This document shows positions 26,413 through 38,492 of a stretch of DNA of 64,000 bases, one piece after another. The DNA is from an uncultured Bacillota bacterium. Lineage in GTDB: Bacteria; Bacillota_I; Bacilli_A; RF39; UBA660. The stretch is from the NCBI GenBank assembly GCA_946407495.1, contig CAMJOB010000002.1, forward strand, positions 6,075 through 70,074. Direction: 5' to 3'. Below the pieces are notes generated by a model that was given only the letters and a program-made list of their open reading frames with translations, was not told the DNA's origin and ran no database searches. The position numbers were made by a program, and so were the translations under genes. How positions within the stretch are numbered: position 1 is the stretch's first letter; each line of letters starts with the position of its first letter.

Positions 26413-28203
26413 CTAGAATCCTCCACCTGCACCGAAGGAATCTAGTTCATCTTTAGTTACTGCTACATTGATACGCATACGTCTGTTTCCACATACGAAT
26501 AATGCTTCACCTTGTGAGTAACGTTTAATACTTTCTTTTTCACTTTCATTAAGGTCAATTAATAATGCTAAGTCTTCTGTTGCTTGTTTTCTTAATCCCA
26601 TTACTAAGTAGTATGAAGCATTATCGAATATTGCTTTTCCTTGAGTAATTACTTGTGGATTAGAGAAATCACTAGGTTGTTGTGTAATTATAATTGTACC
26701 TGTGTTATATTTACGAGCACGTCTTTGTACTTGAGCTAAGAAATCTGCTCCTTGTACGTTACTATCTCCTAGTAATACGTGTGCTTCATCAACCATTAAT
26801 ACAGTATCTACACCTGAGTCTAGACATAGTCCCCAAGCATATTTTAATACGTTAAAGAATAATGCATTACGTACTGTAGAATCACTATTCATTAACTCTT
26901 TGATATTAAATACCATAAAATCTGAATCTTTTCTTAATGTTGTATGACCATCAAAGTAGAATTTTAATTCTCTTGTAATTGGTCTTACTTTTAATTCAAG
27001 TCTTTCAAGTATATCTCTTTCTTGAGTTTGATCTGTAAGAGATGTTAATCTACCTCTAATTGTTGCATATACATCGCTGAATGTTGGATAATCAGCAGAT
27101 GTGAAATGAGTGAAATCAGAAGTATAATCAATACCAAATCTCTTATATGTATCTTGTACTATTTCACTGAACATATTTAATACATCTTCTTCAATTGTTG
27201 GATCATAGTATTTCATGAATCCTCTTAAGAATTGAAGTGTTCTAGTAATTACTGAATGTCCTAGTCCTTGAGCTATTTCTTCTTCATCAGCATCAATTAC
27301 AATTTCAAGTGGGTTGATAAGACCAAATTCTCCACCTTTACCAATGTCTACTGTGTCTCCACCAAATGTATTAGTGATTTCACGGAATTCATCTTCAGGG
27401 TCAATAATAACTATTTGACAACCATTACGAATATGAGTTCTTAACATTAATTTTGCGGCAGTTGATTTACCTGAACCAGATGTACCTAAAATAATCATGT
27501 TAGCATTATTACGGTTATTTTCTTTTCTTATCTTATATAAGAATTGGTTAAATAAGATAACACCACCAGAGAAGTCTACACCTAATAATGTAGATAATCC
27601 TGGATCTTTAATACTATCAAAGATAAATGGATACATTGCAGCGATTGTTACTGATGGAATTGGGGTTCCAATTCTTTGCTCTATATCTTGAGATGGGAAA
27701 ATTGGTACTATTGATTTTAATACTTTTTCTTGTTCAAAACGTAGAGACACTGCTCTTAATTCCATTGCATCTAAGTAGTTCTTAACATTAACTTTCTTTA
27801 ATTCTAATTCTTCTTTAGTGTCAGCAGTAATCATAATGTGCATTTGGAAATCGAAGATTCTTGCTTGCGATCCTGCTAACATAGAAGTAAAGTATTCCAA
27901 ACTTTCAGCATCTTGTCTGATTCTTTCACGTAACGTTTGGTCTCTTTCATTACGATATTTTTCTTTTAAATCAGCGATTTGCTTATTTAACATCTTTGAC
28001 ATTTCTTGGAATGGTACAGGGATGTGTTTTACAACAACTTTTATACCAGACATATTAGTTAAAGATGATAAATATCCTGGTGAAATATATTTAGGATAAG
28101 ATACAACTGTCATAATAGTTGCATATTTATCACTAATAAAGAAATCACTTGGAGAGAAATGTAATCCTTTTGGTGCCAATTGGCTTCTAATACCTATACT
28201 CAT
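26413..28203 (-). CDS. VirB4-family T4SS ATPase (central and C-terminal portion)
   Basis: 596 aa. Walker A GTSGSGKST, Walker B LMVDEAHVLL, IITQQPSD motif. Its ATG overlaps the TGA of the upstream ORF (ATGA). Confidence 0.85.
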   Translation of the reverse strand: MSIGIRSQLAPKGLHFSPSDFFISDKYATIMTVVSYPKYISPGYLSSLTNMSGIKVVVKHIPVPFQEMSKMLNKQIADLKEKYRNERDQTLRERIRQDAESLEYFTSMLAGSQARIFDFQMHIMITADTKEELELKKVNVKNYLDAMELRAVSLRFEQEKVLKSIVPIFPSQDIEQRIGTPIPSVTIAAMYPFIFDSIKDPGLSTLLGVDFSGGVILFNQFLYKIRKENNRNNANMIILGTSGSGKSTAAKLMLRTHIRNGCQIVIIDPEDEFREITNTFGGDTVDIGKGGEFGLINPLEIVIDADEEEIAQGLGHSVITRTLQFLRGFMKYYDPTIEEDVLNMFSEIVQDTYKRFGIDYTSDFTHFTSADYPTFSDVYATIRGRLTSLTDQTQERDILERLELKVRPITRELKFYFDGHTTLRKDSDFMVFNIKELMNSDSTVRNALFFNVLKYAWGLCLDSGVDTVLMVDEAHVLLGDSNVQGADFLAQVQRRARKYNTGTIIITQQPSDFSNPQVITQGKAIFDNASYYLVMGLRKQATEDLALLIDLNESEKESIKRYSQGEALFVCGNRRMRINVAVTKDELDSFGAGGGF

Positions 28204-28748
28204 TGTGGCATCACCGTCCCAAACTCTGTATTTTTTCCACCATTTAAGAAGTTTTCTAATACTACTCTTAAATCGTTATTTGAAACTTGTGCAGCATTTA
28301 ATCCACATTGAGCTAAACCATTAATCATAAGTCTTACTCTCTTTTGAAGTAAATCTACATCTTTTGATTTAAATAAGAAATAATACTCAGTATCAACAAT
28401 ATTATTATTGATGAAACTTTGTCCTTTATTTATATCTTGCATTATTAGTTTTCGAATTGCTGGTGTTGGACTTTCGTTAAATAGTAATTGTAATTGAGAC
28501 ATGTATACAGAAATATCTACAGGTCTATCTGCAACTACTAACCAGAACTCGAAATCTAGCATATTATAGAAGTTTTTTAAACTTATTAATATATTTTCTT
28601 GATAATTAGGATCCAAGATAAATATATTTCTTGGAGTAACTTTTACACCAGTAACTTTTTCATTACTTGTGGTAATAAGCATTCCATTTTGAATTCCTTT
28701 TAGTGGTAACCAATCTTCAGTATATCCACTACTTACCTTTTTTGCCAA
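28200..28748 (-). CDS. VirB4 N-terminal-domain-like protein (separate ORF, translationally coupled to the ATPase)
   Basis: 182 aa with a TTG start. YTEDWLPLKGIQNGMLITTSNEKVTGVKVTPRNIFIL..ENILISLKNFYNMLDFEF follows the N-terminal pattern I recall from single-chain Gram-positive VirB4 homologs. Confidence 0.5.
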   Translation of the reverse strand: MAKKVSSGYTEDWLPLKGIQNGMLITTSNEKVTGVKVTPRNIFILDPNYQENILISLKNFYNMLDFEFWLVVADRPVDISVYMSQLQLLFNESPTPAIRKLIMQDINKGQSFINNNIVDTEYYFLFKSKDVDLLQKRVRLMINGLAQCGLNAAQVSNNDLRVVLENFLNGGKNTEFGTVMPQ

Positions 28749-29043
28749 CTTTATAACACCATCCTCTCCAACGGTAGGTTTGCCTACTCGTTATGAAATC
28801 ATACAATTCCATGATTACAACTAACATATTATGATAGTATGGTATGGGCATTACTAAGAATGCACATACAATTCCTGGAGACAATACTAAGATTGTCTCT
28901 AGGGTTCCACTTACTGGCATAAATGCTAGAAGAGCGACTGTAACTAGAACACCACTTCCAAATAACGCTAGGTCAAATGGAGTAAATATTCCTAATATCA
29001 ATTTACCAGTTTTTGTATTTGCTGGTATTAAATAATTACGCAT
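28729..29043 (-). CDS. Small two-TM T4SS membrane protein (VirB3-like / PrgI-TcpE-like)
   Basis: 104 aa. Two TMs (FDLALFGSGVLVTVALLAF, ILVLSPGIVCAFLVMPI). Lies directly upstream of the VirB4 pair. Confidence 0.45.
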   Translation of the reverse strand: MRNYLIPANTKTGKLILGIFTPFDLALFGSGVLVTVALLAFMPVSGTLETILVLSPGIVCAFLVMPIPYYHNMLVVIMELYDFITSRQTYRWRGWCYKVGKKGK

Positions 29044-29072
29044 TTTGTATCACACACCCTTCATAATTATTA

Positions 29073-30989
29073 CTACTTACTATCAGTTCCAGAACCAGTT
29101 TTATATGATCCAGATCCAAAGCTGTCGTCCAATGTACCAGTGAAAGAACTAACATCTTTCTTATATGTGTAATCAATTTCTTTAACAGCTTTTCCATCAG
29201 CATCTTTAACAACATTTCCATCGTTGTCTTTTAATACTCTACCTGTAGCTTGAGCACTTTCAACTTTATATGGCGTTCTGTAAGTTTCTTCTCTTGTATC
29301 TATCATACGTGGAGCAACACCCAATTGAGCTCTTGCTTTATCCATTTTTTCGTATGTTTTGCTAGCTTTAGCAAATCTAGCTCCAACTCTTTCATTTCTG
29401 TCATAAGCTTCTTGATATTCTCGGTATGCAGCAGCTCTTTGTTCAGGAGTAGCATCTGCTCCAAGAGAACGAATTTTTTGTGCAGCATAGTCGAGAGCTT
29501 TCTTTGTCTTGAAACTTTCTTGTTCCCATTGATCTGCTTCATATTTTGCTTTTGCTACATCTTGAGCTCCTATACCATACTTAGCAGCTTGAGCTTCACG
29601 AGTTTGATAATTTAACTTGTCTAATTGGTGACCCATGATACCGCCTTTTGCATCTTTATCACCAGTTTTAATTTTCTCCATTAAATCTCTGTTTTGAGAC
29701 CATGTAGCTCCAAGAGGAACGGCTTTTCCTGATACTTGACCATCTATTTCAGAATTAGTTCCGTTCATAGCTCCATAGGCGAATCCTTTTAGTCCTCCAC
29801 CATTTAAAGCCATAGCTGAACCACCAAGAAGTGCTGATAGACCAATATTTGATAAGTGAGTTTTGATTCCTAAAGCATCAGTTATGAACTTAGGTGCCAT
29901 CTTAGCAAACATTAATAATCCAATACAGATTACGATAAATGCAACTACACCTGTAATTCCACCTACACCCATAGATCCATTCATAATTAATCCGTTACGG
30001 ATAATATCATCAATTAGGAATAATGCGAAATATACCATTGCTAAACGGATAAATAAATCTAAATATGTTGCAATTAATAGTTTTAACCAACTACCAAATG
30101 CACCATTTTTCTCTTGACCAGGTTCCATATAACTAATAATTGGAATTGGTGCAATTAAACGTAATACAGATAGTTTGATAGCACGAATTGCAATATCAAT
30201 TGAGAATACTGCAAATAAAATTGTAAAGATTATTGCTACTATACCACCAACGATTGGCACGTATGCTAAAGCATAATAGTTAGTACCAAATACTAGGAAT
30301 TTATTACCACATTCATCATTTAAGTGATCTAGGAATAAATCCGTTACCGTGGCATTATCATAATTATTATCTTTTACTATGTCTTCATCAGGACACATAT
30401 ATTCATCAGAGCCTTGCTCTTTATGATTTCGTTGTACAAATCCTTTTGCTATAGTTGAAATGAATTTATCTTTAATTCCAGGAAGTCCACTCGATATAAC
30501 ACTTCCATCTGATGCTCTTCTTGGTGCATCATTACCTAAAATTAATTGTCCTAAAACATCATTTTCTAGAATTCTTTTTTGTAATGAATATAATGTACCA
30601 AACATAATACCATTATTATTAACTTCTACTTGAAAACGATTTCTTGGATTTTGAATATTTAAAGGCATAACTAGTGATAACATAACCAAACTTGTTACAA
30701 TTCTTGTAATCAATTGACTACTTCCTGATTGTTTATCATTTAAATAGTCTGGGTTAACCATTGATTTTAAAATCATAATAGTTAGCTTAAACACCATGAA
30801 AATTCCTAGAATTAATTGAATTCTAGAAATTAAATTGAACACTGTCTCTCCGGTAAATAATTCTGCATTAGCTACAGCGTAGAAAACTTCATACACCCAG
30901 CCTAATATTTCAAAGAATACCCAATCGATCCATCCTAGAATGGTACGAACTAAATCTAGTCCCCACCAAGCACCCCAAGTTTGAGCCAT
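29073..30989 (-). CDS. VirB6/TrbL-like polytopic T4SS channel protein with charged C-terminal coiled region
   Basis: 638 aa. At least 6 predicted TMs across residues 1-400, then about 200 aa of a hydrophilic K/E/A-rich tail. Position between the VirB2-like and VirB3/VirB4-like genes. Confidence 0.55.
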   Translation of the reverse strand: MAQTWGAWWGLDLVRTILGWIDWVFFEILGWVYEVFYAVANAELFTGETVFNLISRIQLILGIFMVFKLTIMILKSMVNPDYLNDKQSGSSQLITRIVTSLVMLSLVMPLNIQNPRNRFQVEVNNNGIMFGTLYSLQKRILENDVLGQLILGNDAPRRASDGSVISSGLPGIKDKFISTIAKGFVQRNHKEQGSDEYMCPDEDIVKDNNYDNATVTDLFLDHLNDECGNKFLVFGTNYYALAYVPIVGGIVAIIFTILFAVFSIDIAIRAIKLSVLRLIAPIPIISYMEPGQEKNGAFGSWLKLLIATYLDLFIRLAMVYFALFLIDDIIRNGLIMNGSMGVGGITGVVAFIVICIGLLMFAKMAPKFITDALGIKTHLSNIGLSALLGGSAMALNGGGLKGFAYGAMNGTNSEIDGQVSGKAVPLGATWSQNRDLMEKIKTGDKDAKGGIMGHQLDKLNYQTREAQAAKYGIGAQDVAKAKYEADQWEQESFKTKKALDYAAQKIRSLGADATPEQRAAAYREYQEAYDRNERVGARFAKASKTYEKMDKARAQLGVAPRMIDTREETYRTPYKVESAQATGRVLKDNDGNVVKDADGKAVKEIDYTYKKDVSSFTGTLDDSFGSGSYKTGSGTDSK

Positions 30990-31018
30990 TCTTTCATCAC
31001 CTCGTTATTTCTTTTATT

Positions 31019-32044
31019 TTAATCTAATACGCACACTGGTCCACCAGTAATTCCAAATACATCAAGTAATACTTCTACTAACGTAGGTACTACAAATAAG
31101 GCTATAGCTAAGACTAATCTTGTGATTAATCTCTTATAACATTTTTGCATTGTTTCATCATCGCCAGCAATAATAGCTTTTGTAAAATCAATTGCGCTCA
31201 TTACTAGGATTATCATTGGTCCTAAAACCTTTAAATAATTAAAGATTTGTTTTACTAACCATGCTGTAGAATCTTCATCTGCAGGATCACCTAAAATTGT
31301 GTCAGTACATGATGCTCCTTGAGCTCCATCGTATGATAAAGATTTAGTTGCTTGTCCATCCTTTTCGCTTATATCATTTTTTGGACATGCATTTTTATTA
31401 CTTGTTAATTTATATTCGTATTTGCCGTCTTTTTTAACGACGCATCTATATATATTATTGTATTGTGCATCATTAGTAAAGATATCTTTTGCAATATTTT
31501 TATCAATTGTTATATTATTATCCTTATTATAAGAGATTGCTTTGCTAATATCTTTGTAGTTTGCTCCATCAATACTCCATTCAATTGTTCCATCATTTAA
31601 CATACGGAAGTATGGAACAAAGTAAGATGTTTTATTATATACTCCTACACTATTACCAATAATAGTTTTTGTAACTCCATTTGTTTCAGCATTGATTGTT
31701 TTACAAATTCCGTTACAATGATTTTGATCAATTGGATTTAACATAACCATATTATAATCATCATTTTCTTCTACAGTAATTGTTGGACATACTGTTCCAT
31801 TACTAGAATTTGATGCACGTAAAAATTCATCTGATAAGTTATTACTTTGATACCAGATTTTTCCGTTAATAATATCTCCGTCTTTCCAATTTGTTTCTAC
31901 TTTGTTACTATTTAATTTAAAAATTAGTTCTTGACTTTCTACCTTGTAAATACAAGTATTTTCTTCTTTTGCTTCTACTTTGAAAGGGCAAAATAAGCTT
32001 AGTGCTAATAATAAAGTAAATGTAAATATTTTGCTATTTTTCAT
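31019..32044 (-). CDS. Secreted Cys-containing domain fused to a C-terminal VirB2/TrbC-like two-TM hairpin
   Basis: Start re-called to ATG 32044 (MKNSKIFTFTLLLALSLFCPFKVEA signal peptide, GGAGTG RBS). The C-terminal WLVKQIFNYLKVLGPMIILVMSAIDFTKAIIAGDDETMQKCYKRLITRLVLAIALFVVPTLVEVLLDVFG aligns with the 111-aa protein. Confidence 0.5.
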   Translation of the reverse strand: MKNSKIFTFTLLLALSLFCPFKVEAKEENTCIYKVESQELIFKLNSNKVETNWKDGDIINGKIWYQSNNLSDEFLRASNSSNGTVCPTITVEENDDYNMVMLNPIDQNHCNGICKTINAETNGVTKTIIGNSVGVYNKTSYFVPYFRMLNDGTIEWSIDGANYKDISKAISYNKDNNITIDKNIAKDIFTNDAQYNNIYRCVVKKDGKYEYKLTSNKNACPKNDISEKDGQATKSLSYDGAQGASCTDTILGDPADEDSTAWLVKQIFNYLKVLGPMIILVMSAIDFTKAIIAGDDETMQKCYKRLITRLVLAIALFVVPTLVEVLLDVFGITGGPVCVLD

Positions 32045-32090
32045 AAGACCCACTCCAAATTACATTTTAACACATTAATTATAACATTAG

Positions 32091-32116
32091 AAAAAAAAAA
32101 TAGCAATTGTGCTATT
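32091..32116 (-). terminator. Rho-independent terminator after the VirB2-like gene
   Basis: Minus strand AATAGCA-CAAT-TGCTATT followed by 8 T, 26 nt after the stop. Confidence 0.65.
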
Positions 32117-32141
32117 CTTTTTTTTTCTTATTATTTTTTTA

Positions 32142-32477
32142 CTATTTAGCTGCGTTCCAGCAATTGCTCCAACTATTAGTATCACTATCAGATCCACCGT
32201 TTCCGATGATATCCATGATAACTGTTACTAATGTTACTACAAAGAAGATCAATGCAGCGTAGATACATCTCTTGATTAATCTGCTTTGTGCTGCTTTAAT
32301 TTCTTTTTCATCACTAGCAATAACAGCTTTTCCTAAATCAATAATTCCGTAAATAATTAATACGATTGGAATTAAAATTTGAACGATAGGATATATACCT
32401 CTTCTGATTACTCTAACTAGTGGTAGTAATCCACGGCAACCATCGTCAATTTCACCAATTTGAATTAGTTTATCCAT
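32142..32477 (-). CDS. VirB2/TrbC-like pilin-type two-TM hairpin protein
   Basis: 111 aa. TM1 IYPIVQILIPIVLIIYGIIDLG, basic loop SDEKEIKAAQSRLIKR, TM2 IYAALIFFVVTLVTVIMDIIG. Has its own promoter and terminator. Confidence 0.5.
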   Translation of the reverse strand: MDKLIQIGEIDDGCRGLLPLVRVIRRGIYPIVQILIPIVLIIYGIIDLGKAVIASDEKEIKAAQSRLIKRCIYAALIFFVVTLVTVIMDIIGNGGSDSDTNSWSNCWNAAK

Positions 32478-32503
32478 AATCTTATCTCTCCTTCGTTAAG
32501 AAT

Positions 32504-32532
32504 ATCATACCTTATATCAAAGTCTTTGTCAA
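32504..32532 (-). promoter_or_regulatory. Strong sigma-A promoter of the VirB2-like gene
   Basis: Minus strand TTGACA (32532-32527), 17 nt, TATGAT (32509-32504), followed by an AAGGAGAG RBS. Confidence 0.6.
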
Positions 32533-32537
32533 TTAAT

Positions 32538-33812
32538 TTACTTCCTAAACAAACCAAAAATTCCACTTTGAGAACTACCTGAATTTGTATTAGAAATAAT
32601 ATTACATCTTTGCATAAAGTCTATGATAATTTCATTTCTTTTTCGATCATTTAAAGGTGGCATATTATATTTAATTTGTAGTCCTGATTCATACTCAAAT
32701 TCTTGTACTTCTTTTTGAGTTAATAGACTCTTATTTAATACCACTTTTTTTCCTCTAAGCATAGCAATGATGGATTTATTTCTTTGCATTAAAGAATGTA
32801 ATTTTATAATGCTTGGTTCTATTAAGTAGATTATGTCGTGACATATTCCACCTAAATCATGACCATTTAAGTCTACGAATATAATCTTTGCGTCTGACAT
32901 TTTTCTAATAGTTTTAGCAAGATCATCTGCAGTTTCTGAAAACATTTGTTTATCATTGTATGCTAGAAAATCGCTTTTTTCTATTTCTATTGCGTAGACA
33001 CCTTGTCCATACATTGATGATAATTCTTTCTTCATCATGTATACCAAACTTGTTGCACCTGCATTATCTGTGACATTTTGAACACCAATTACTAATACAT
33101 TTCCAACATTTTGTTGTTGATTCATTTGTTGTTGAGGCGCTTGTTGTTGTACAGGTTGCGGCATTGGTTGTTGTACTGGCTGTTGTTGTGGTCTATCTAA
33201 ATGCATACTAACCTTTTGGTAGAACACACCTTGTTGCGGTGGTTGTGTTGGCTGTGGCATTGGTTGTGCAGGTTGTTGTTCAAACATAGGAGCTTGGGTT
33301 GGTTGTGGTTCTTCTTGTGCTAATCTTTGAACCTCTTGCTCTCTTGAAGGCTCTAATGGTGGTGGTGGAACTACTTGCTCCATTTGTGTTGGAGGTACTT
33401 CCTCATATTGGCCACTATCAGTTGTTCCTTCACCCATTTTTTGAATATGTTCAACATCTTTATATGTGTTGGAATTATTAATTAGATAAATAACTCCTTC
33501 AATATTTGTTGTAAAGTTATAAATACCATATGTTATTAGACGAGATAAAAATCCAGATGTGCACAAGTCACTACCTTCTGGAAGGTAAAATATGACTTTA
33601 TCTGGATTTAAGCCTTCTACTAGTTCTTTATATGTTTCAGGATTGTTATAATCCTTAAGAGCTGTTACATCTAATATCATCTTATTATAGAAAAAATCTT
33701 TAAATAATGCGATTAGTTCACTTGCTTGAAAGCTTCCAGTTATGCTTTTAATAATATCTACTTCGATATTTTGTAACTGATTTTGCTGTTCATTCAATAC
33801 AAGCACATTCAT
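32538..33812 (-). CDS. TadZ/CpaE-like protein: N-terminal receiver-like domain, Pro/Gln-rich linker, C-terminal ParA/MinD-like domain with degenerate P-loop
   Basis: 424 aa. C-terminal VLVIGVQNVTDNAGATSLVYMM sits in place of the GxxGxGK[ST] motif and is followed by a MinD-like layout. Lies within the tad gene set. Confidence 0.45.
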   Translation of the reverse strand: MNVLVLNEQQNQLQNIEVDIIKSITGSFQASELIALFKDFFYNKMILDVTALKDYNNPETYKELVEGLNPDKVIFYLPEGSDLCTSGFLSRLITYGIYNFTTNIEGVIYLINNSNTYKDVEHIQKMGEGTTDSGQYEEVPPTQMEQVVPPPPLEPSREQEVQRLAQEEPQPTQAPMFEQQPAQPMPQPTQPPQQGVFYQKVSMHLDRPQQQPVQQPMPQPVQQQAPQQQMNQQQNVGNVLVIGVQNVTDNAGATSLVYMMKKELSSMYGQGVYAIEIEKSDFLAYNDKQMFSETADDLAKTIRKMSDAKIIFVDLNGHDLGGICHDIIYLIEPSIIKLHSLMQRNKSIIAMLRGKKVVLNKSLLTQKEVQEFEYESGLQIKYNMPPLNDRKRNEIIIDFMQRCNIISNTNSGSSQSGIFGLFRK

Positions 33813-33835
33813 AGTATCAGCCCCTTATTCTTTTA

Positions 33836-34288
33836 CTATTTACTTTTAACACGAATAGCTTTTGTATCTCCTGTTATTTGGAATACATTTAAATTTGGTA
33901 ATACATTACGGATAATAGGCATATCAATTTGGATTTGAGTTAATACTTTGTAATAGACTCTTCTATTACCTTCATCTTCTCCACCATTATTGTTTGAATA
34001 CACTTGTTTATAGCACCATCCTCCTCCTGGTCCAGCAATCATTCCTTTTGCTTCACAGTTCATATCGAATGCTGTGCTATATCCTATATCAATCATGTAT
34101 TGTTTAATTTGTTCTTCTACAGCTCGGTTATCAATATTACCTTCATATTCTTCAATTGTAGAGATGATCTTGTTCTTTACACGGAATGCTTTAGTATAAT
34201 TCACGTTAAAAGCAAGATATCCAGATACGATTACTAAGAATACTACTATGATAACTAAGTTAACTACTCCACCTACTGCATCACGCAT
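33836..34288 (-). CDS. TadE/TadF-like minor pilin candidate
   Basis: 150 aa. MRDAVGG then the hydrophobic VVNLVIIVVFLVIVSGYLAF. Lies directly downstream of the small pilin candidate. Confidence 0.35.
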   Translation of the reverse strand: MRDAVGGVVNLVIIVVFLVIVSGYLAFNVNYTKAFRVKNKIISTIEEYEGNIDNRAVEEQIKQYMIDIGYSTAFDMNCEAKGMIAGPGGGWCYKQVYSNNNGGEDEGNRRVYYKVLTQIQIDMPIIRNVLPNLNVFQITGDTKAIRVKSK

Positions 34289-34312
34289 CTATATCACCAA
34301 CTTTTTATTATT

Positions 34313-34516
34313 CTAGTCATTGTCTTCATTAATTCTACTTGTATTTTGTTTAATACAGTTTCCATTTGCGTCTCTCTTTTCACATGAAATAGAGTCCCAT
34401 TGACTACCAATACTATTTTTGATACTTGGCCACATTAACCAGAAGAATCCGATTACTGCTGCGATGGCAATCATTGTAATAACTGTTAATTGTAATTCAC
34501 CAGTTGCTGCTTTCAT
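34313..34516 (-). CDS. Small Flp-size pilin candidate (non-canonical leader)
   Basis: 67 aa. MKAATG|ELQLTVITMIAIAAVIGFFWLMW, a short leader ending in Gly followed by a hydrophobic helix. Own promoter. Two Cys in the C-terminal part. Confidence 0.4.
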   Translation of the reverse strand: MKAATGELQLTVITMIAIAAVIGFFWLMWPSIKNSIGSQWDSISCEKRDANGNCIKQNTSRINEDND

Positions 34517-34547
34517 TGGCTTTCACATCCTTTCCTATCCTAAAAAC

Positions 34548-34576
34548 ATTATAACAAAATCATTTTTGTTTTACAA
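34548..34576 (-). promoter_or_regulatory. Sigma-A promoter (TG-extended -10) of the small pilin candidate
   Basis: Minus strand TTGTAA (34576-34571), 17 nt ending in TGT, TATAAT (34553-34548). Confidence 0.55.
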
Positions 34577-34583
34577 ATATATT

Positions 34584-35393
34584 TTATGTTTGGAAAATCA
34601 TTAACATTGAGATTAAGATAATCATCATAACTCCAATACCAGTAACTACCAACATAATCATGGTTTGTTGTTCCATATGATTTAATCTTTCTTTATATTT
34701 TGTTTCCCTTGCTTTATTTTGTAAAGTTGACACGGTTCTTGAAAACATCATTAATCGGTCTTGCTTCTTTTCTTGCGAACCAATTCCTAAACGATATAAC
34801 AAACGCATCATTCTCATTGAATCTCTAACTGGATAAGTATTTGCAAATTCCATATATGGATCAATACTTGAATCACCAGCATTGATTCTATCAATCATTC
34901 TACGAAGTCCAGGTCTAAATATTTCTGGTGCATCTTGAATAGATTTACCTATTGCTACTGGAACTGTGTAGTGTTGAATTAAAATCTCTAACGATTTTAA
35001 GTAATATGGAAGCATAATATCAATTTCATGTAAGTGTGCTTTATAATTGTTTTTTAATTGCATATAAGGAATTTTAAAACATAAATAAGCAATTGCTACT
35101 GATAATACTAAATTCAAGAAGAATTGAGTATTAATGAAATCTAGTGAGCTTCCTCCACTCATTGAGAATGCTAATACGATGAAAAACATTATTAAGGCAA
35201 ATGTAATTCTCTTAGAATATAATTGATCTGCATCTGCGTCTTCACCATATTTTGCATATACTAAGAATGTATAATCATCTTCTCTTATAATATCAAAGTA
35301 TTTTTCATTATCTGCAAAGAATTTATCTTTATCGATTGTATTATTGTAGATAAGAATATACATGATAATTGCACCTATTAATAATATCTCCAT
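34584..35393 (-). CDS. tadC: TadC-like (T2SS-F family) pilus platform membrane protein
   Basis: 269 aa. N-terminal TM, mid TMs, helical cytoplasmic domain and C-terminal TM. TAATG overlap with the upstream TadB-like gene. Canonical tadA-tadB-tadC order. Confidence 0.55.
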   Translation of the reverse strand: MEILLIGAIIMYILIYNNTIDKDKFFADNEKYFDIIREDDYTFLVYAKYGEDADADQLYSKRITFALIMFFIVLAFSMSGGSSLDFINTQFFLNLVLSVAIAYLCFKIPYMQLKNNYKAHLHEIDIMLPYYLKSLEILIQHYTVPVAIGKSIQDAPEIFRPGLRRMIDRINAGDSSIDPYMEFANTYPVRDSMRMMRLLYRLGIGSQEKKQDRLMMFSRTVSTLQNKARETKYKERLNHMEQQTMIMLVVTGIGVMMIILISMLMIFQT

Positions 35394-36295
35394 TACTCAG
35401 CACCTACATTCTCATTATAATATTTTTCTCCTTTTAAAAGGAAATATGTATTAACAATCAAAACTCCGTGTAAGAGTACTTGAATAAATAATTTATCTAA
35501 TAGAACAACATAAGTTTCTCTTCCTAACAAGTACTGTACTAACATAACCATCAGGTATAACATTATACCGAACTGTAAGAAGTTCTTGTGGAAGTTTTGT
35601 CTTTCAATACGGTCACGATATACACTTTCAATAAGCATATCGATATCTGTTTGCATGTTATCTAGAGAGTCTGCAGTATTTCTTGCACCTTCTTTAGTGA
35701 TTTGTAAGAATAATTGATGCATGTTTTTAACTATATAATATGGATAATGTTGTGACATATACTCTAATGATTCATCAATTGTACCATTTTTATATGCCAT
35801 ATCTATCATATGGTTAACATCACTTAATACTGGATCTTCTAGAACTCCAGATGATCTAACACCTTCTAGAGATTTAACAAATGATTGTGTAGTAGCAAAT
35901 TCCATAATAGTATTTGAAGTATATACTTGAATTTGCTCGAAGATAAATTCTGAATATACTTTATTACATCTTAGATATGCTAAGTATGGAACAAATGCTA
36001 CTGAAATTAGCATGTATATAATACTAATAATTAAACTATAAAAATATAGATAGGTTACTACTCCAGCAAATCCTGCAATTAGGACTACTTGAATTGTATA
36101 TTGTCTAACACTATATTCTTGTCCAAGTTCTTTTGTTTTTTCACGAACTACCTTGAAAGAATATGGAGCAAACTTATTGTACATTTCTTGTACTTGACCA
36201 GTAACATATTTTCCTACATTTTCACCTTTATAGTTACGATATAGATAAATACCGACAGCAAATACGATTATTATAAATAACTCTTCTATATACAT
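35393..36295 (-). CDS. tadB: TadB-like (T2SS-F family) pilus platform membrane protein
   Basis: 300 aa. Same TM/helical layout as TadC. Immediately downstream of the TadA ATPase gene. Confidence 0.55.
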   Translation of the reverse strand: MYIEELFIIIVFAVGIYLYRNYKGENVGKYVTGQVQEMYNKFAPYSFKVVREKTKELGQEYSVRQYTIQVVLIAGFAGVVTYLYFYSLIISIIYMLISVAFVPYLAYLRCNKVYSEFIFEQIQVYTSNTIMEFATTQSFVKSLEGVRSSGVLEDPVLSDVNHMIDMAYKNGTIDESLEYMSQHYPYYIVKNMHQLFLQITKEGARNTADSLDNMQTDIDMLIESVYRDRIERQNFHKNFLQFGIMLYLMVMLVQYLLGRETYVVLLDKLFIQVLLHGVLIVNTYFLLKGEKYYNENVGAE

Positions 36296-36311
36296 ATTAT
36301 TTTGCCCCTTT

Positions 36312-37667
36312 CTAACTTTGTGGTAATGGTTGTGCCGGTTGTTGAACTACTGGTTGTACTGGCGCCTGTACCTGAGGTTGAACTGCAGGTTGTGCAGGAG
36401 CTGCTGGTGCAACCGGTGGTTTTGCAACTTGTGGTTGAGCCACAGTTGGTTGAACCGGTGTTTGTGGATGTACCGCTTGTTGTGCTGGTTGTGCCGGTTG
36501 TTGAAGTGGTACTGGTTTTGGAGGATTAACTGCAGATGTTGGAGGGGCTGCTTTAGCAGGTGCACTCTCTTTTTCTGATTCAGGTACTCCAAATTCTGTT
36601 ACCGACATTTTTGTTGGTAAATTCTTTATAATATCTGATACATCGATATTTTGATTTTCGATATATTCAATTAAATGATCACTTGGTCGAATCATTTCTT
36701 CTTTACCCATTTGTTTACGGTAAATTGTATGTGCTACTGGTTCATTATTATCATCTACATAGAATTCAGTAACTTCATCAACTTCACGATGGAACTTACC
36801 ATATTCTTTACTGTAGAATGCCTTAATGTGTACACCGATTTGTACGTAACGATAAATTGTATTTAAGAATTGGTTAACATCCAAATCTGTTTCCATTAAG
36901 GAATATAGACGATATGGGATAGCTGATGCCTTATCTGCATGGATTGTAGATAAGATATTGTGACCTGATGAAATAGAGTTACGTACAGCAGAAACAGCTT
37001 CTGCAGAACGAACTTCGGAAAGTAGAATCCACTTTGGATTCTGACGCATACAGGTAACTAATACATCAGAATAACTAGCTACGTTATTAGTTTTCATAGA
37101 TACGATATCTCTTTGTGGGAAAATCTTATCTAAGTGCAACTCTAGAGTATCCTCTATCGTTATTATCTTTTCATTTACTCTTGTGTGAGAAGCTAAGTAT
37201 TTAACAAACTCTGTTTTACCTGAACCAGTTTCACCGGCTACCATGATATTACAGTGTCCTTCTACACATTTAATTAAGAAATCATGAATATTTTCTGTGA
37301 AGTAATCTTCACTAATTAATTTATCTTTTTCTAGACGAATTTTTGCAGGAGTTTTACGGATAACTAACGCAATACCATTTGTTGCAATGGATTGATGTAC
37401 GAAGTTCATACGTAACTCAGCACTTTCAGCATCTAGAAATGGTTTGGCATTGTTAAATGTTGTTCCCATAACGTTGGAACATTGGAATGCCAACTTTTCA
37501 ACAAACTCTGGTGTTGCCCCTTCTACCTCTACTCTCATTGATCCTTGAGTAAGAGAACGAATCCATATTTGTCCTCCATTATCATATGAGATATCGGTGA
37601 TATCATCATCCTCTAGTAATGGTTTAAAAGGTCCAAAGTCTAATTTATCAAATATACTACCATTCAC
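36312..37667 (-). CDS. tadA: TadA/CpaF-family (VirB11-superfamily) secretion ATPase with Pro/Gln/Ala/Val-rich C-terminal tail
   Basis: 451 aa with a GTG start. Walker A GETGSGKTE, Asp box IITIEDTLEL, Walker B WILLSEVR, His box GHNILSTIHA. The last ~110 aa are PAQ-rich low complexity. Confidence 0.9.
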   Translation of the reverse strand: MNGSIFDKLDFGPFKPLLEDDDITDISYDNGGQIWIRSLTQGSMRVEVEGATPEFVEKLAFQCSNVMGTTFNNAKPFLDAESAELRMNFVHQSIATNGIALVIRKTPAKIRLEKDKLISEDYFTENIHDFLIKCVEGHCNIMVAGETGSGKTEFVKYLASHTRVNEKIITIEDTLELHLDKIFPQRDIVSMKTNNVASYSDVLVTCMRQNPKWILLSEVRSAEAVSAVRNSISSGHNILSTIHADKASAIPYRLYSLMETDLDVNQFLNTIYRYVQIGVHIKAFYSKEYGKFHREVDEVTEFYVDDNNEPVAHTIYRKQMGKEEMIRPSDHLIEYIENQNIDVSDIIKNLPTKMSVTEFGVPESEKESAPAKAAPPTSAVNPPKPVPLQQPAQPAQQAVHPQTPVQPTVAQPQVAKPPVAPAAPAQPAVQPQVQAPVQPVVQQPAQPLPQS

Positions 37668-37682
37668 TAACCATCACCCCTT

Positions 37683-38492
37683 TTACTTTTCTGTCCATAC
37701 CGTTACATTATTAATCCATTCTTTCATAGTTTCACTAGATAAATCTATTTCTCCTGGATTATCTTTTAAACTTTCATTTGTTGGAACTGGAATTAATTTT
37801 GCACTATATGTTCTTAAGAATTCTGCTTTCTTTAGTAAGATGTAGTATTCTTCTGGTATAGCAAAGATAATCATTGCTGGTGTACCATTTTCTTTTCCAT
37901 TTTCGAATACTGCATTACCATCAGCATCTCTAACTGCGATTACTTTTACGTTAGATAAGAATTTACCTAACATTACCTTTTCATCTGCATTTTCATCATT
38001 AGTTTGACCACTTGCAGAAACAGTTTCTACTTTCATATAGATATCTATGTAGTTTCCAGGATAAATTGAGTTACCATAAGTTGTTTCAGTTGTAACTGAC
38101 ATATTATATAGAACATATCCTTTTGGATAATCTAAGATAATATTTGCTGGTAATTCTTCTTTTAGAACTACTGTTCTTTCATAGAATAAACTTCCTTTTG
38201 GAATAATTGTATCTGCATTAGCATAATGGTCTACTACTTCACTTAAAGTAGTTAGGACATCTCTATCAATCATAGAAGGAGGAACCTCTGTGGTTCCTAC
38301 CATTCTCTGAGTGATTTGCGTTCCTGCTAAAATGTTTTCTTTTGCATATGGTACTGTTATGGGGTTAATGGAATTCTTTAGTCGCATATTGTAACTAAAT
38401 ATAAGAATACCAATCGCTAATCCAAGACCCAAAATAGTAACGGATGTTTTATTAAATATAAATCGATTGAGTGATAAAATTAATTTCCCCAT
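37683..38492 (-). CDS. CpaB/RcpC-like SAF-domain pilus assembly protein, paralog 3
   Basis: 269 aa. N-terminal TM, SAF-like VPYAKENILAGTQITQRMVGTTEVPPSM. Shares YVLYNMSV.T..TYGNS.YPGNYIDIY.K and LIPVPTNESLK blocks with the paralogs at 42411 and 49472. Confidence 0.65.
   Translation of the reverse strand: MGKLILSLNRFIFNKTSVTILGLGLAIGILIFSYNMRLKNSINPITVPYAKENILAGTQITQRMVGTTEVPPSMIDRDVLTTLSEVVDHYANADTIIPKGSLFYERTVVLKEELPANIILDYPKGYVLYNMSVTTETTYGNSIYPGNYIDIYMKVETVSASGQTNDENADEKVMLGKFLSNVKVIAVRDADGNAVFENGKENGTPAMIIFAIPEEYYILLKKAEFLRTYSAKLIPVPTNESLKDNPGEIDLSSETMKEWINNVTVWTEK

Follow-up and report, generated by a model that had tools for sequence, protein, structure and literature searches.

The window analysed here is a stretch of 64,000 nucleotides from contig 2 of a metagenome-assembled genome (1.14 Mb, 68% complete) of an uncultured Bacillota bacterium (GCA_946407495.1). 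Its GC content is about 30%, and every gene lies on the minus strand, which is therefore the strand of every window feature given below. One long gene cluster spans 51.8 kb down to 19.6 kb (19565-51846), with housekeeping genes flanking it on either side. The cluster begins with a Tad-like pilus set made up of three CpaB/RcpC-like genes, a gene for a CpaF-type ATPase, two TadB/C-like genes, a 67-amino-acid (aa) pilin candidate and a TadZ-like 424-aa gene. These are directly upstream of a 111-aa gene, followed by a 344-aa gene, and then by type IV secretion system (T4SS) genes in the order TrbL/VirB6-like, VirB3-like, split VirB4, SpoIID-domain protein, 284-aa protein and VirD4, the coupling protein that closes the T4SS part. 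The subject of this report is the pair formed by the 111-aa and 344-aa genes, both of which encode a hairpin of two transmembrane (TM) helices. An earlier note had described this pair as a VirB2/TrbC-like module, and both of its open reading frames (ORFs) were found at the stated coordinates on the minus strand.

The 111-aa protein (32142-32477) is leaderless. Its N-terminal tail contains Cys14 and is followed by TM1 (residues 29-48), a basic loop (49-70), TM2 (71-92) and a C-terminal tail containing Cys106; the loop between the two hydrophobic helices reads GKAVIASDEKEIKAAQSRLIKR. AlphaFold2 placed long helices at residues 18-54 and 57-94, with a predicted local distance difference test score (pLDDT) of 80-90 across the hairpin and 76.6 for the model. 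The hydrophobic helices, the charge of the loop and the AlphaFold2 model all agree with the earlier description of a two-TM hairpin with a basic loop. A Shine-Dalgarno (SD) sequence, GAAGGAGAG, lies upstream of the gene. Homologues of the 111-aa protein with 65-100% identity formed 891 clusters, and the loop was the best conserved part of the orthologue family, with a mean identity of 91%. A loop that is nearly invariant points to a specific cytoplasmic partner.

The 111-aa gene was also thought to have a near-consensus promoter and a terminator of its own. Its sigma-70-type promoter, TTGACA-17-TATGAT (32504-32532), matches the consensus at 11 of 12 positions and was the single best match on both strands of a 9.5-kb interval (28500-38000). 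The number of promoter-like sites in this interval was that expected by chance (55 found, 55.0 expected); the promoter of the 111-aa gene rises above chance because it is conserved across related loci. The comparison covered 22 such loci with protein identity down to about 41% (L013-L016 were left out). An equivalent promoter scoring 10-12 out of 12 was found at all 22, and the TTGACA element was exact in 20 of them. The predicted intrinsic terminator (32091-32116) consists of the stem AATAGCA/TGCTATT (32116-32110 / 32105-32099), a CAAT loop and a run of 10 T residues extending to 32091, and an upstream A-tract can lengthen the stem. With the A-tract included, the predicted folding energy was -15.3 kcal/mol (z = -4.14), which none of 200 shuffled sequences equalled. 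A consensus terminator scan missed this element because its stem holds only two G-C pairs. Nineteen of the 21 relatives with available downstream sequence have a hairpin and T-run after the stop codon, the stem sequence varying by lineage. A second promoter with a TG extension, TTGCTA-17-TATAAT (32078-32106; 10 of 12 plus TG), precedes the 341/344-aa gene, and relatives contain TTG(T/A)TA...TGnTATAAT-like sites after the terminator. This second promoter probably serves the 341/344-aa gene and the T4SS genes downstream of it. From these conserved signals we conclude that, at the sequence level, the 111-aa gene is a monocistronic promoter-to-terminator unit between the Tad and T4SS operons, in keeping with the separate transcription unit that had been proposed.

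The second gene (31019-32044 or 31019-32053) encodes a Sec leader, an ectodomain and a C-terminal hairpin. Its true start is probably the ATG at 32044 (341 aa) rather than the GTG at 32053 (344 aa), because all of the relatives begin MK(N/K)... and an SD sequence, GGAG, lies upstream of the ATG. The signal peptide, MKNSKIFTFTLLLALSLFCPFKVEA (31970-32044), was identified from the translation, with cleavage after VEA predicted by eye. Its n-h-c layout and A-x-A-type site (VEA, SYA, TMA, TSA) are conserved in an alignment of relatives (A2); the Cys within the signal peptide is unconserved and has no lipobox around it. The ectodomain that follows (31313-31969; about 219 aa) is variable, beta-rich and Cys-containing, with Cys conserved in the same alignment and an AlphaFold2 pLDDT of about 90. 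Foldseek comparison of the 344-aa model with the PDB gave no match, the best E-value being 0.26. The last 97 or so residues (31022-31312; stop codon at 31019-31021) form a hairpin module, SC...TM1...GDDETMQKCYKRLITR...TM2...GGPVCVLD, that is paralogous to the 111-aa protein; BLASTP gave an ungapped alignment of the two hairpins spanning 67 aa, with 34% identical and 64% positive positions (E = 2e-13). The earlier account of this gene as a signal peptide, a Cys-containing domain and the same hairpin was therefore borne out, with a domain of about 220 aa and the start shifted to the ATG.

Relatives of the second protein range from 122 to 528 aa, the ectodomain from a few residues up to about 430. 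Mean pairwise identity was 0.42 in the ectodomain versus 0.63 in the hairpin, and by this measure the predicted exported domain is changing much faster than its hairpin. In some lineages the second slot is empty and the small hairpin gene leads straight to TrbL. At three related loci (L024:3399-4568, L025:3378-4574 and L030:3356-4573) the small hairpin gene is followed in this slot by one for a protein of about 390-405 aa with an N-terminal TM helix, a C-terminal ...GDG(S/T)..NPY and no hairpin. The slot seems to be a swap site for surface proteins.

Topology was deduced from charge and from the domains attached to the hairpin. The net charge of the hairpin loop is +2.6 and that of the flanks -0.5 to -1.1. 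Besides the two genes described above, the window contains a third paralogue of 281 aa (57219-58064), in which a leaderless N-terminal hairpin, with the Cys pair kept and ...AACW... after TM2, is joined to a C-terminal NlpC/P60 domain (PF00877 NLPC_P60, E = 9.6e-15). The signal peptide on the fusion paralogue and the C-terminal NlpC/P60 domain on the third paralogue each require an N-out/C-out arrangement. Thus a VirB2-like topology is supported, in which the basic loop would be cytoplasmic and both ends outside. Helix 1 is preceded and helix 2 followed by a Cys in 281 of 292 sequences, and neither Cys occurs in five, which belong to one subgroup; the remaining six were discordant, some of them being fragments. 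The pair corresponds to Cys14 and Cys106 of the 111-aa protein and to Cys245 and Cys337 of the 341-aa form. The two positions are likewise nearly invariant in a mixed alignment of 41 family members (A1). In the AlphaFold2 model of the fusion protein, the segment preceding TM1 pairs with the C-terminal tail as beta-bridges. The simplest reading of the co-occurring Cys residues and of this model is that a disulfide ties together the outer ends of the hairpin, as these data suggest.

Family assignment rested on PF18895 (T4SS_pilin), a 71-position model with a gathering cut-off of 26.6 bits. It matched 36 of the 41 members of alignment A1 at E ≤ 0.1 (best E = 1.3e-7), and the matches spanned nearly the whole model, from positions 2-11 to 70-71. 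Isolated hairpin modules scored 24.5-35.5 bits, with close relatives at 28-35.5 bits, above the cut-off. None of five reversed-sequence controls matched PF18895 at E ≤ 1, and two relatives carry precomputed matches to this family. The hairpins also have the features by which the family is described, namely two TM helices with a short charged loop, and a position beside T4SS genes, the latter being lacking for the extra paralogues encoded elsewhere. The assignment of the hairpin to PF18895 is solid at the family level, as judged from profile matches, and borderline for the two window sequences alone.

A relationship to PF04956 (TrbC/VirB2), which the earlier note had offered as a check, did not emerge: no member of alignment A1 matched this model at E ≤ 0.1, and the isolated module of a single relative reached 14.4 bits (E = 0.045; cut-off 27.9). 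Two other models, NF045848 and NF045849, which describe small conjugal-transfer proteins of Mycoplasma, weakly matched nine and four of the 41 family members (best E = 0.0025 and 0.021, respectively). NF045849 gave 12.5 bits with the 344-aa protein (E = 0.09), against a curated cut-off of 40 bits. These weak matches fit the finding that the best model for VirB4 is NF045975, the VirB4 of Mycoplasma integrative and conjugative elements (ICEs), at 354 bits versus a cut-off of 590. A search of PDB sequences with the family profile returned chance matches only.

A profile search of 1.84 billion representative proteins (E ≤ 0.001) identified 9881 representatives of 114-566 aa that carry the hairpin; most of them begin with a signal peptide, continue with a variable domain and end in the hairpin. 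Among 201 genomes of the order, which are 0.6-1.6 Mb in size, it was present in 195, with 1-16 copies each. Of the best 150 copies in these genomes, 85 are on the same contig as VirB4, and for 83 of these the distance to it is 2.9-8.6 kb (median 4.2 kb), a proximity that holds across about 100 genera. In a sample of the class, the module occurred in all 35 genomes of the window's family versus 2 of 266 other Bacilli. Both relaxase families that were searched for proved rare in a set of 61 genomes, PF03432 occurring in 5 and PF02486 in 2 of them. A tblastn search with the hairpin found no match among 72,556 plasmids, and hence no sign of a plasmid-borne relative. The Tad-like and T4SS cluster behaves as a vertically inherited core locus in this lineage of small genomes.

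Within the cluster, the hairpin genes are directly upstream of TrbL/VirB6, VirB3 and VirB4, which is the virB2 slot, and this synteny is fixed. The gene immediately downstream of the fusion gene encodes a TrbL/VirB6-like polytopic protein of 638 aa (29073-30989; PF19597 TrbL_4, 34.4 bits), and the gene order is kept in L001-L003 and other relatives. It is followed by a VirB3-like 104-aa gene and VirB4 (together 26413-29043). VirB4 is encoded as a 182-aa N-domain ORF and a 596-aa ATPase ORF that overlap at ATGA (26413-28748); NF045975 matched both pieces, and the split is kept in L001-L003. In 192 of the 201 genomes the ATPase ORF was recovered with 69-89% identity, and each time its reading frame stayed open over about 600 aa, indicating that the split is a lineage trait and no frameshift error.

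With moderate confidence we propose, from profile matches, synteny and distribution, that the two genes encode paralogous PF18895-family hairpin subunits at the virB2 position of a chromosomal, vertically inherited and mostly relaxase-less T4SS of genome-reduced gut Bacilli. A core, non-conjugative-looking system is the best-supported reading of the T4SS itself. The earlier designation as VirB2/TrbC-like thus holds for the topology, for the virB2 slot and for the similarity to PF18895, but not for membership of PF04956 or for significant similarity to VirB2/TrbC. In the arrangement that we envisage, the 111-aa protein would be an abundant, invariant core subunit inserted without a leader, and its loop would meet the cytoplasmic face of the machine at the VirB4 N-domain, VirB3 or VirB6. 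The second protein would enter via Sec, join the same assembly through its hairpin and display a lineage-variable, disulfide-rich surface domain for contact with a target. The terminator between the two genes may ensure that the core subunit is made in large excess over the other components of the machine. TrbC/VirB2 pilins undergo head-to-tail cyclisation, and a disulfide that joins the outer Cys residues, and with them the N- and C-side ends, would be analogous to this modification. The hairpins could form either a membrane collar or stalk, or a polymerised tube spanning the wall.

Several observations weigh against placing these hairpins among the subunits of the T4SS. The 111-aa protein alone scored 16 bits against PF18895 (E = 0.013), and the 344-aa protein scored 23.5 bits over its full length, 26.4 when its hairpin module was taken alone and 26.7 in a six-frame search, values at or just under the cut-off; moreover, the 'pilin' label of this family is itself a prediction and not the outcome of experiment. 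When 62 hairpins were compared by hhalign with a VirB2 profile built from pTiC58 VirB2 and collected relatives (18 sequences), the score of 12.9 (P = 0.23) was like that of reversed controls (P = 0.29-0.88). Foldseek of the 111-aa model against the PDB returned nothing at E ≤ 0.001, a search that is uninformative because a two-helix hairpin carries little information. Four Arg residues immediately precede TM1 of the 111-aa protein, which is awkward for export of a leaderless N-terminal tail. In some relatives the hairpin fusion is replaced by a surface protein anchored by an N-terminal TM helix. Finally, hairpins are also found far from T4SS genes and in many copies, so that docking to a T4SS is not their sole possible role; those away from T4SS genes suggest that the module may serve for docking or anchoring rather than as a filament subunit.

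This last point bears on a true extracellular filament, a reading that takes up the polymer with a minor or tip subunit suggested in the earlier note. Here VirB4 would extract the 111-aa protein from the membrane, and the protein would polymerise on the VirB6-like platform into a wall-spanning, pilus-like tube, with the ectodomain paralogue as a minor or tip subunit. The topology is VirB2-like, the genes occupy the virB2 slot beside VirB6, VirB3 and VirB4, and a strong separate promoter and a terminator are as expected for a bulk subunit. In the structures of the F and T pili the loops of the conjugative pilins line the lumen and are basic, as is the loop of the hairpin. In relatives, two or three paralogues form arrays beside VirB4 that are similar to those of VirB2-like genes in Patescibacteria, where a pilus has been suggested (PMC12102498, PMC12857230). 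Against these likenesses, neither sequence nor profile links the hairpin to a pilin whose filament structure has been solved, the structure search with its model gave nothing, and the separate Tad-like pilus directly upstream might already provide a filament. Attachments to the hairpin as large as ectodomains of 220-430 aa, or a hydrolase domain, would be hard to pack into a pilus except at its tip. In addition, a recent review finds no VirB2 in Gram-positive T4SSs outside Patescibacteria and describes no pilus for them (PMC12857230). We regard a filament as unlikely on this balance.

The main rival to a T4SS subunit is a generic, lineage-specific membrane anchor for exported adhesins and hydrolases, the copies at the T4SS locus being neighbours and not parts of the machine. 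Such an anchor would account for the 1-16 copies per genome, many of them of 300-555 aa and on contigs without VirB4, for the very diverse N-terminal domains of the 9881 representative clusters and for the fusion to NlpC/P60. It also suits a 129-aa copy beside an unrelated exported enzyme, and a copy in a spore-former whose neighbours are a sigma factor gene and rlmN, T4SS genes being absent to a distance of 10 kb. However, the most conserved member of the family is the 111-aa hairpin, which has no cargo; its 891 clusters at 65% identity or more and its 91% identical loop would make no sense for a mere anchor. The position 3-9 kb from VirB4, held by 83 of the 85 same-contig copies in about 100 genera, and the way in which the module tracks the T4SS-carrying lineage within the Bacilli (35 of 35 versus 2 of 266 genomes) argue against mere neighbours, as does the specificity of the PF18895 match, which was lost in the reversed controls. 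On these grounds an anchor independent of the machine is unlikely. It is highly improbable that the 111-aa protein is an unrelated small membrane protein, such as a holin, a bacteriocin-immunity protein or a toxin-type peptide, that is pilin-like by TM composition alone. It is indeed small with two TM helices, and taken alone it has chance-level weak matches to other TM families at E-values similar to that for PF18895. Reversed sequences nevertheless lose the PF18895 match, and the gene lies in the chromosome, belongs to the core and keeps its synteny with the T4SS, the hairpin occurring in 195 of the 201 genomes. Neither the 111-aa nor the fusion protein had a PHROG match, and no phage or toxin genes are nearby; we rejected a holin or phage origin on the basis of this search and the lack of a phage context.

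An extended form of the proposed T4SS subunit would combine these elements into a T4SS-dependent, pilus-like conduit of disulfide-closed leaderless hairpins, into which interchangeable paralogues with variable ectodomains (adhesins, a wall hydrolase) are plugged, and which would act with the adjacent Tad-like pilus in attachment to, and exchange with, other cells. We consider this quite unlikely in full. If it were true, these Bacilli would have the same solution as Patescibacteria have for epibiosis, and a Firmicute-type T4SS would be linked with the Patescibacterial VirB2-like arrays.

The closest counterpart among known systems is in fact that of Patescibacteria. According to a 2025 review, Gram-positive T4SSs are without VirB2 and VirB5, the exception being Patescibacteria, in which an array of six VirB2-like genes is essential (PMC12857230). 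A survey of that group detected VirB2-like genes with PF04956 and PF18895, in arrays of 2-11 copies and mostly without a relaxase, and left the pilin origin open (PMC12102498). Southlakia epibionticum ML1 and Nanosynbacter lyticus TM7x (PMC12102498, PMC12857230) share with the present locus the hidden Markov model family PF18895, a likeness at the level of family and description. Also shared are a monoderm host with a small genome, a chromosomal Gram-positive-type T4SS with VirB3, VirB4, VirB6 and VirD4 and usually no relaxase, at least two divergent tandem paralogues next to virB4, and a type IV-filament locus (Tad-like or type IV pilus) alongside. The present system differs in that its host belongs to the Bacillota (Bacilli), one paralogue is leaderless and extremely conserved, and the hairpin is flanked by a conserved Cys pair and carries large ectodomains or NlpC/P60.

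The likeness to classical VirB2/TrbC proteins (PF04956; Agrobacterium VirB2, RP4 TrbC) lies in the two hydrophobic helices with a short basic loop and both ends outside, in a gene ahead of virB3, virB4 and virB6, and in the signal peptide of the second paralogue, which its 122-528-aa counterparts also have (cleavage sites assigned by eye). The termini of the classical proteins are joined by cyclisation and those of the present hairpins possibly by a disulfide. Unlike the classical proteins, the hairpins show no significant sequence or profile similarity to that family, there is no outer membrane to cross, and the 111-aa protein is leaderless. Mycoplasma ICEs appear to have the same layout, with two small membrane proteins near VirB4 (NF045849, 'Mbov_0395 family pilin-like', and NF045848, 'MMCAP2_0566 family'), as judged from the locus numbers in the family names. 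In contrast to those mobile, conjugating elements, the locus described here is fixed in the chromosome and mostly lacks a relaxase, and its scores are far below the curated cut-offs. The multiple variable VirB2 and VirB5 copies of Bartonella Trw, which are thought to diversify surface contact (PMC12857230), offer a possible logic for the ectodomain paralogues; this is an analogy only, as the Bartonella host is diderm and its system has classical VirB2/VirB5 and no ectodomain fusions. ConC of ICEBs1 was considered as a relative and rejected, since the review assigns it to the TcpE/VirB3 family (PMC12857230).

A literature search on type IV secretion and pili found no paper describing this system in RF39-like Bacilli. 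Until now, VirB2-like proteins of single-membrane T4SSs have been discussed for Patescibacteria alone; the findings add another monoderm group and do not define a new kind of protein. They open a second place to look for a T4SS fibre that spans the wall, and point to a possible evolutionary link between Firmicute-type and Patescibacterial systems. An invariant 111-aa protein with variable partners would give a molecular handle on the cell-cell interactions of genome-reduced gut bacteria in a widespread, uncultured lineage. Through the Cys pair, a disulfide equivalent of pilin cyclisation could be tested by simple biochemistry.

The source genome contains four copies of the hairpin. The hairpin-NlpC/P60 gene has housekeeping genes around it and is about 5 kb away from the Tad/T4SS cluster, on its upstream side, and its product scored 25.1 bits against PF18895 in the six-frame search, 22 bits whole and 24.5 bits as an isolated module. 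This protein may be a wall hydrolase that is targeted to the machine via its hairpin. The fourth paralogue, a 129-aa leaderless hairpin with ...AACWNYA..., is encoded on contig 7 (38471-38860; L010:1444-1833), where it adjoins a gene for a 345-aa exported protein (the enzyme mentioned above) and has no T4SS genes nearby. The copy in the spore-former (L004:10001-11044; P0139) is a 347-aa protein with a signal peptide, a Cys-rich domain and a hairpin that is 44% identical; it is located between a sigma-70-family gene with the SpoVA operon and rlmN.

Relatives contain both tandem arrays of two or three copies beside VirB4 and dispersed copies of 300-555 aa. One array (L034:3363-5037) has three hairpin genes in tandem, for proteins of 161, 265 and 132 aa that each have a signal peptide; their C-terminal tails have CxxC-type motifs (ECTKCIL, CAKCVLNVDQC and ECFTCIWDVSKC) in place of one lone Cys. 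Genomes G017, G007, G029 and others have up to 16 copies, most of the extra ones being 300-555 aa long and on contigs without VirB4. These expanded copies look like a variable repertoire of surface proteins.

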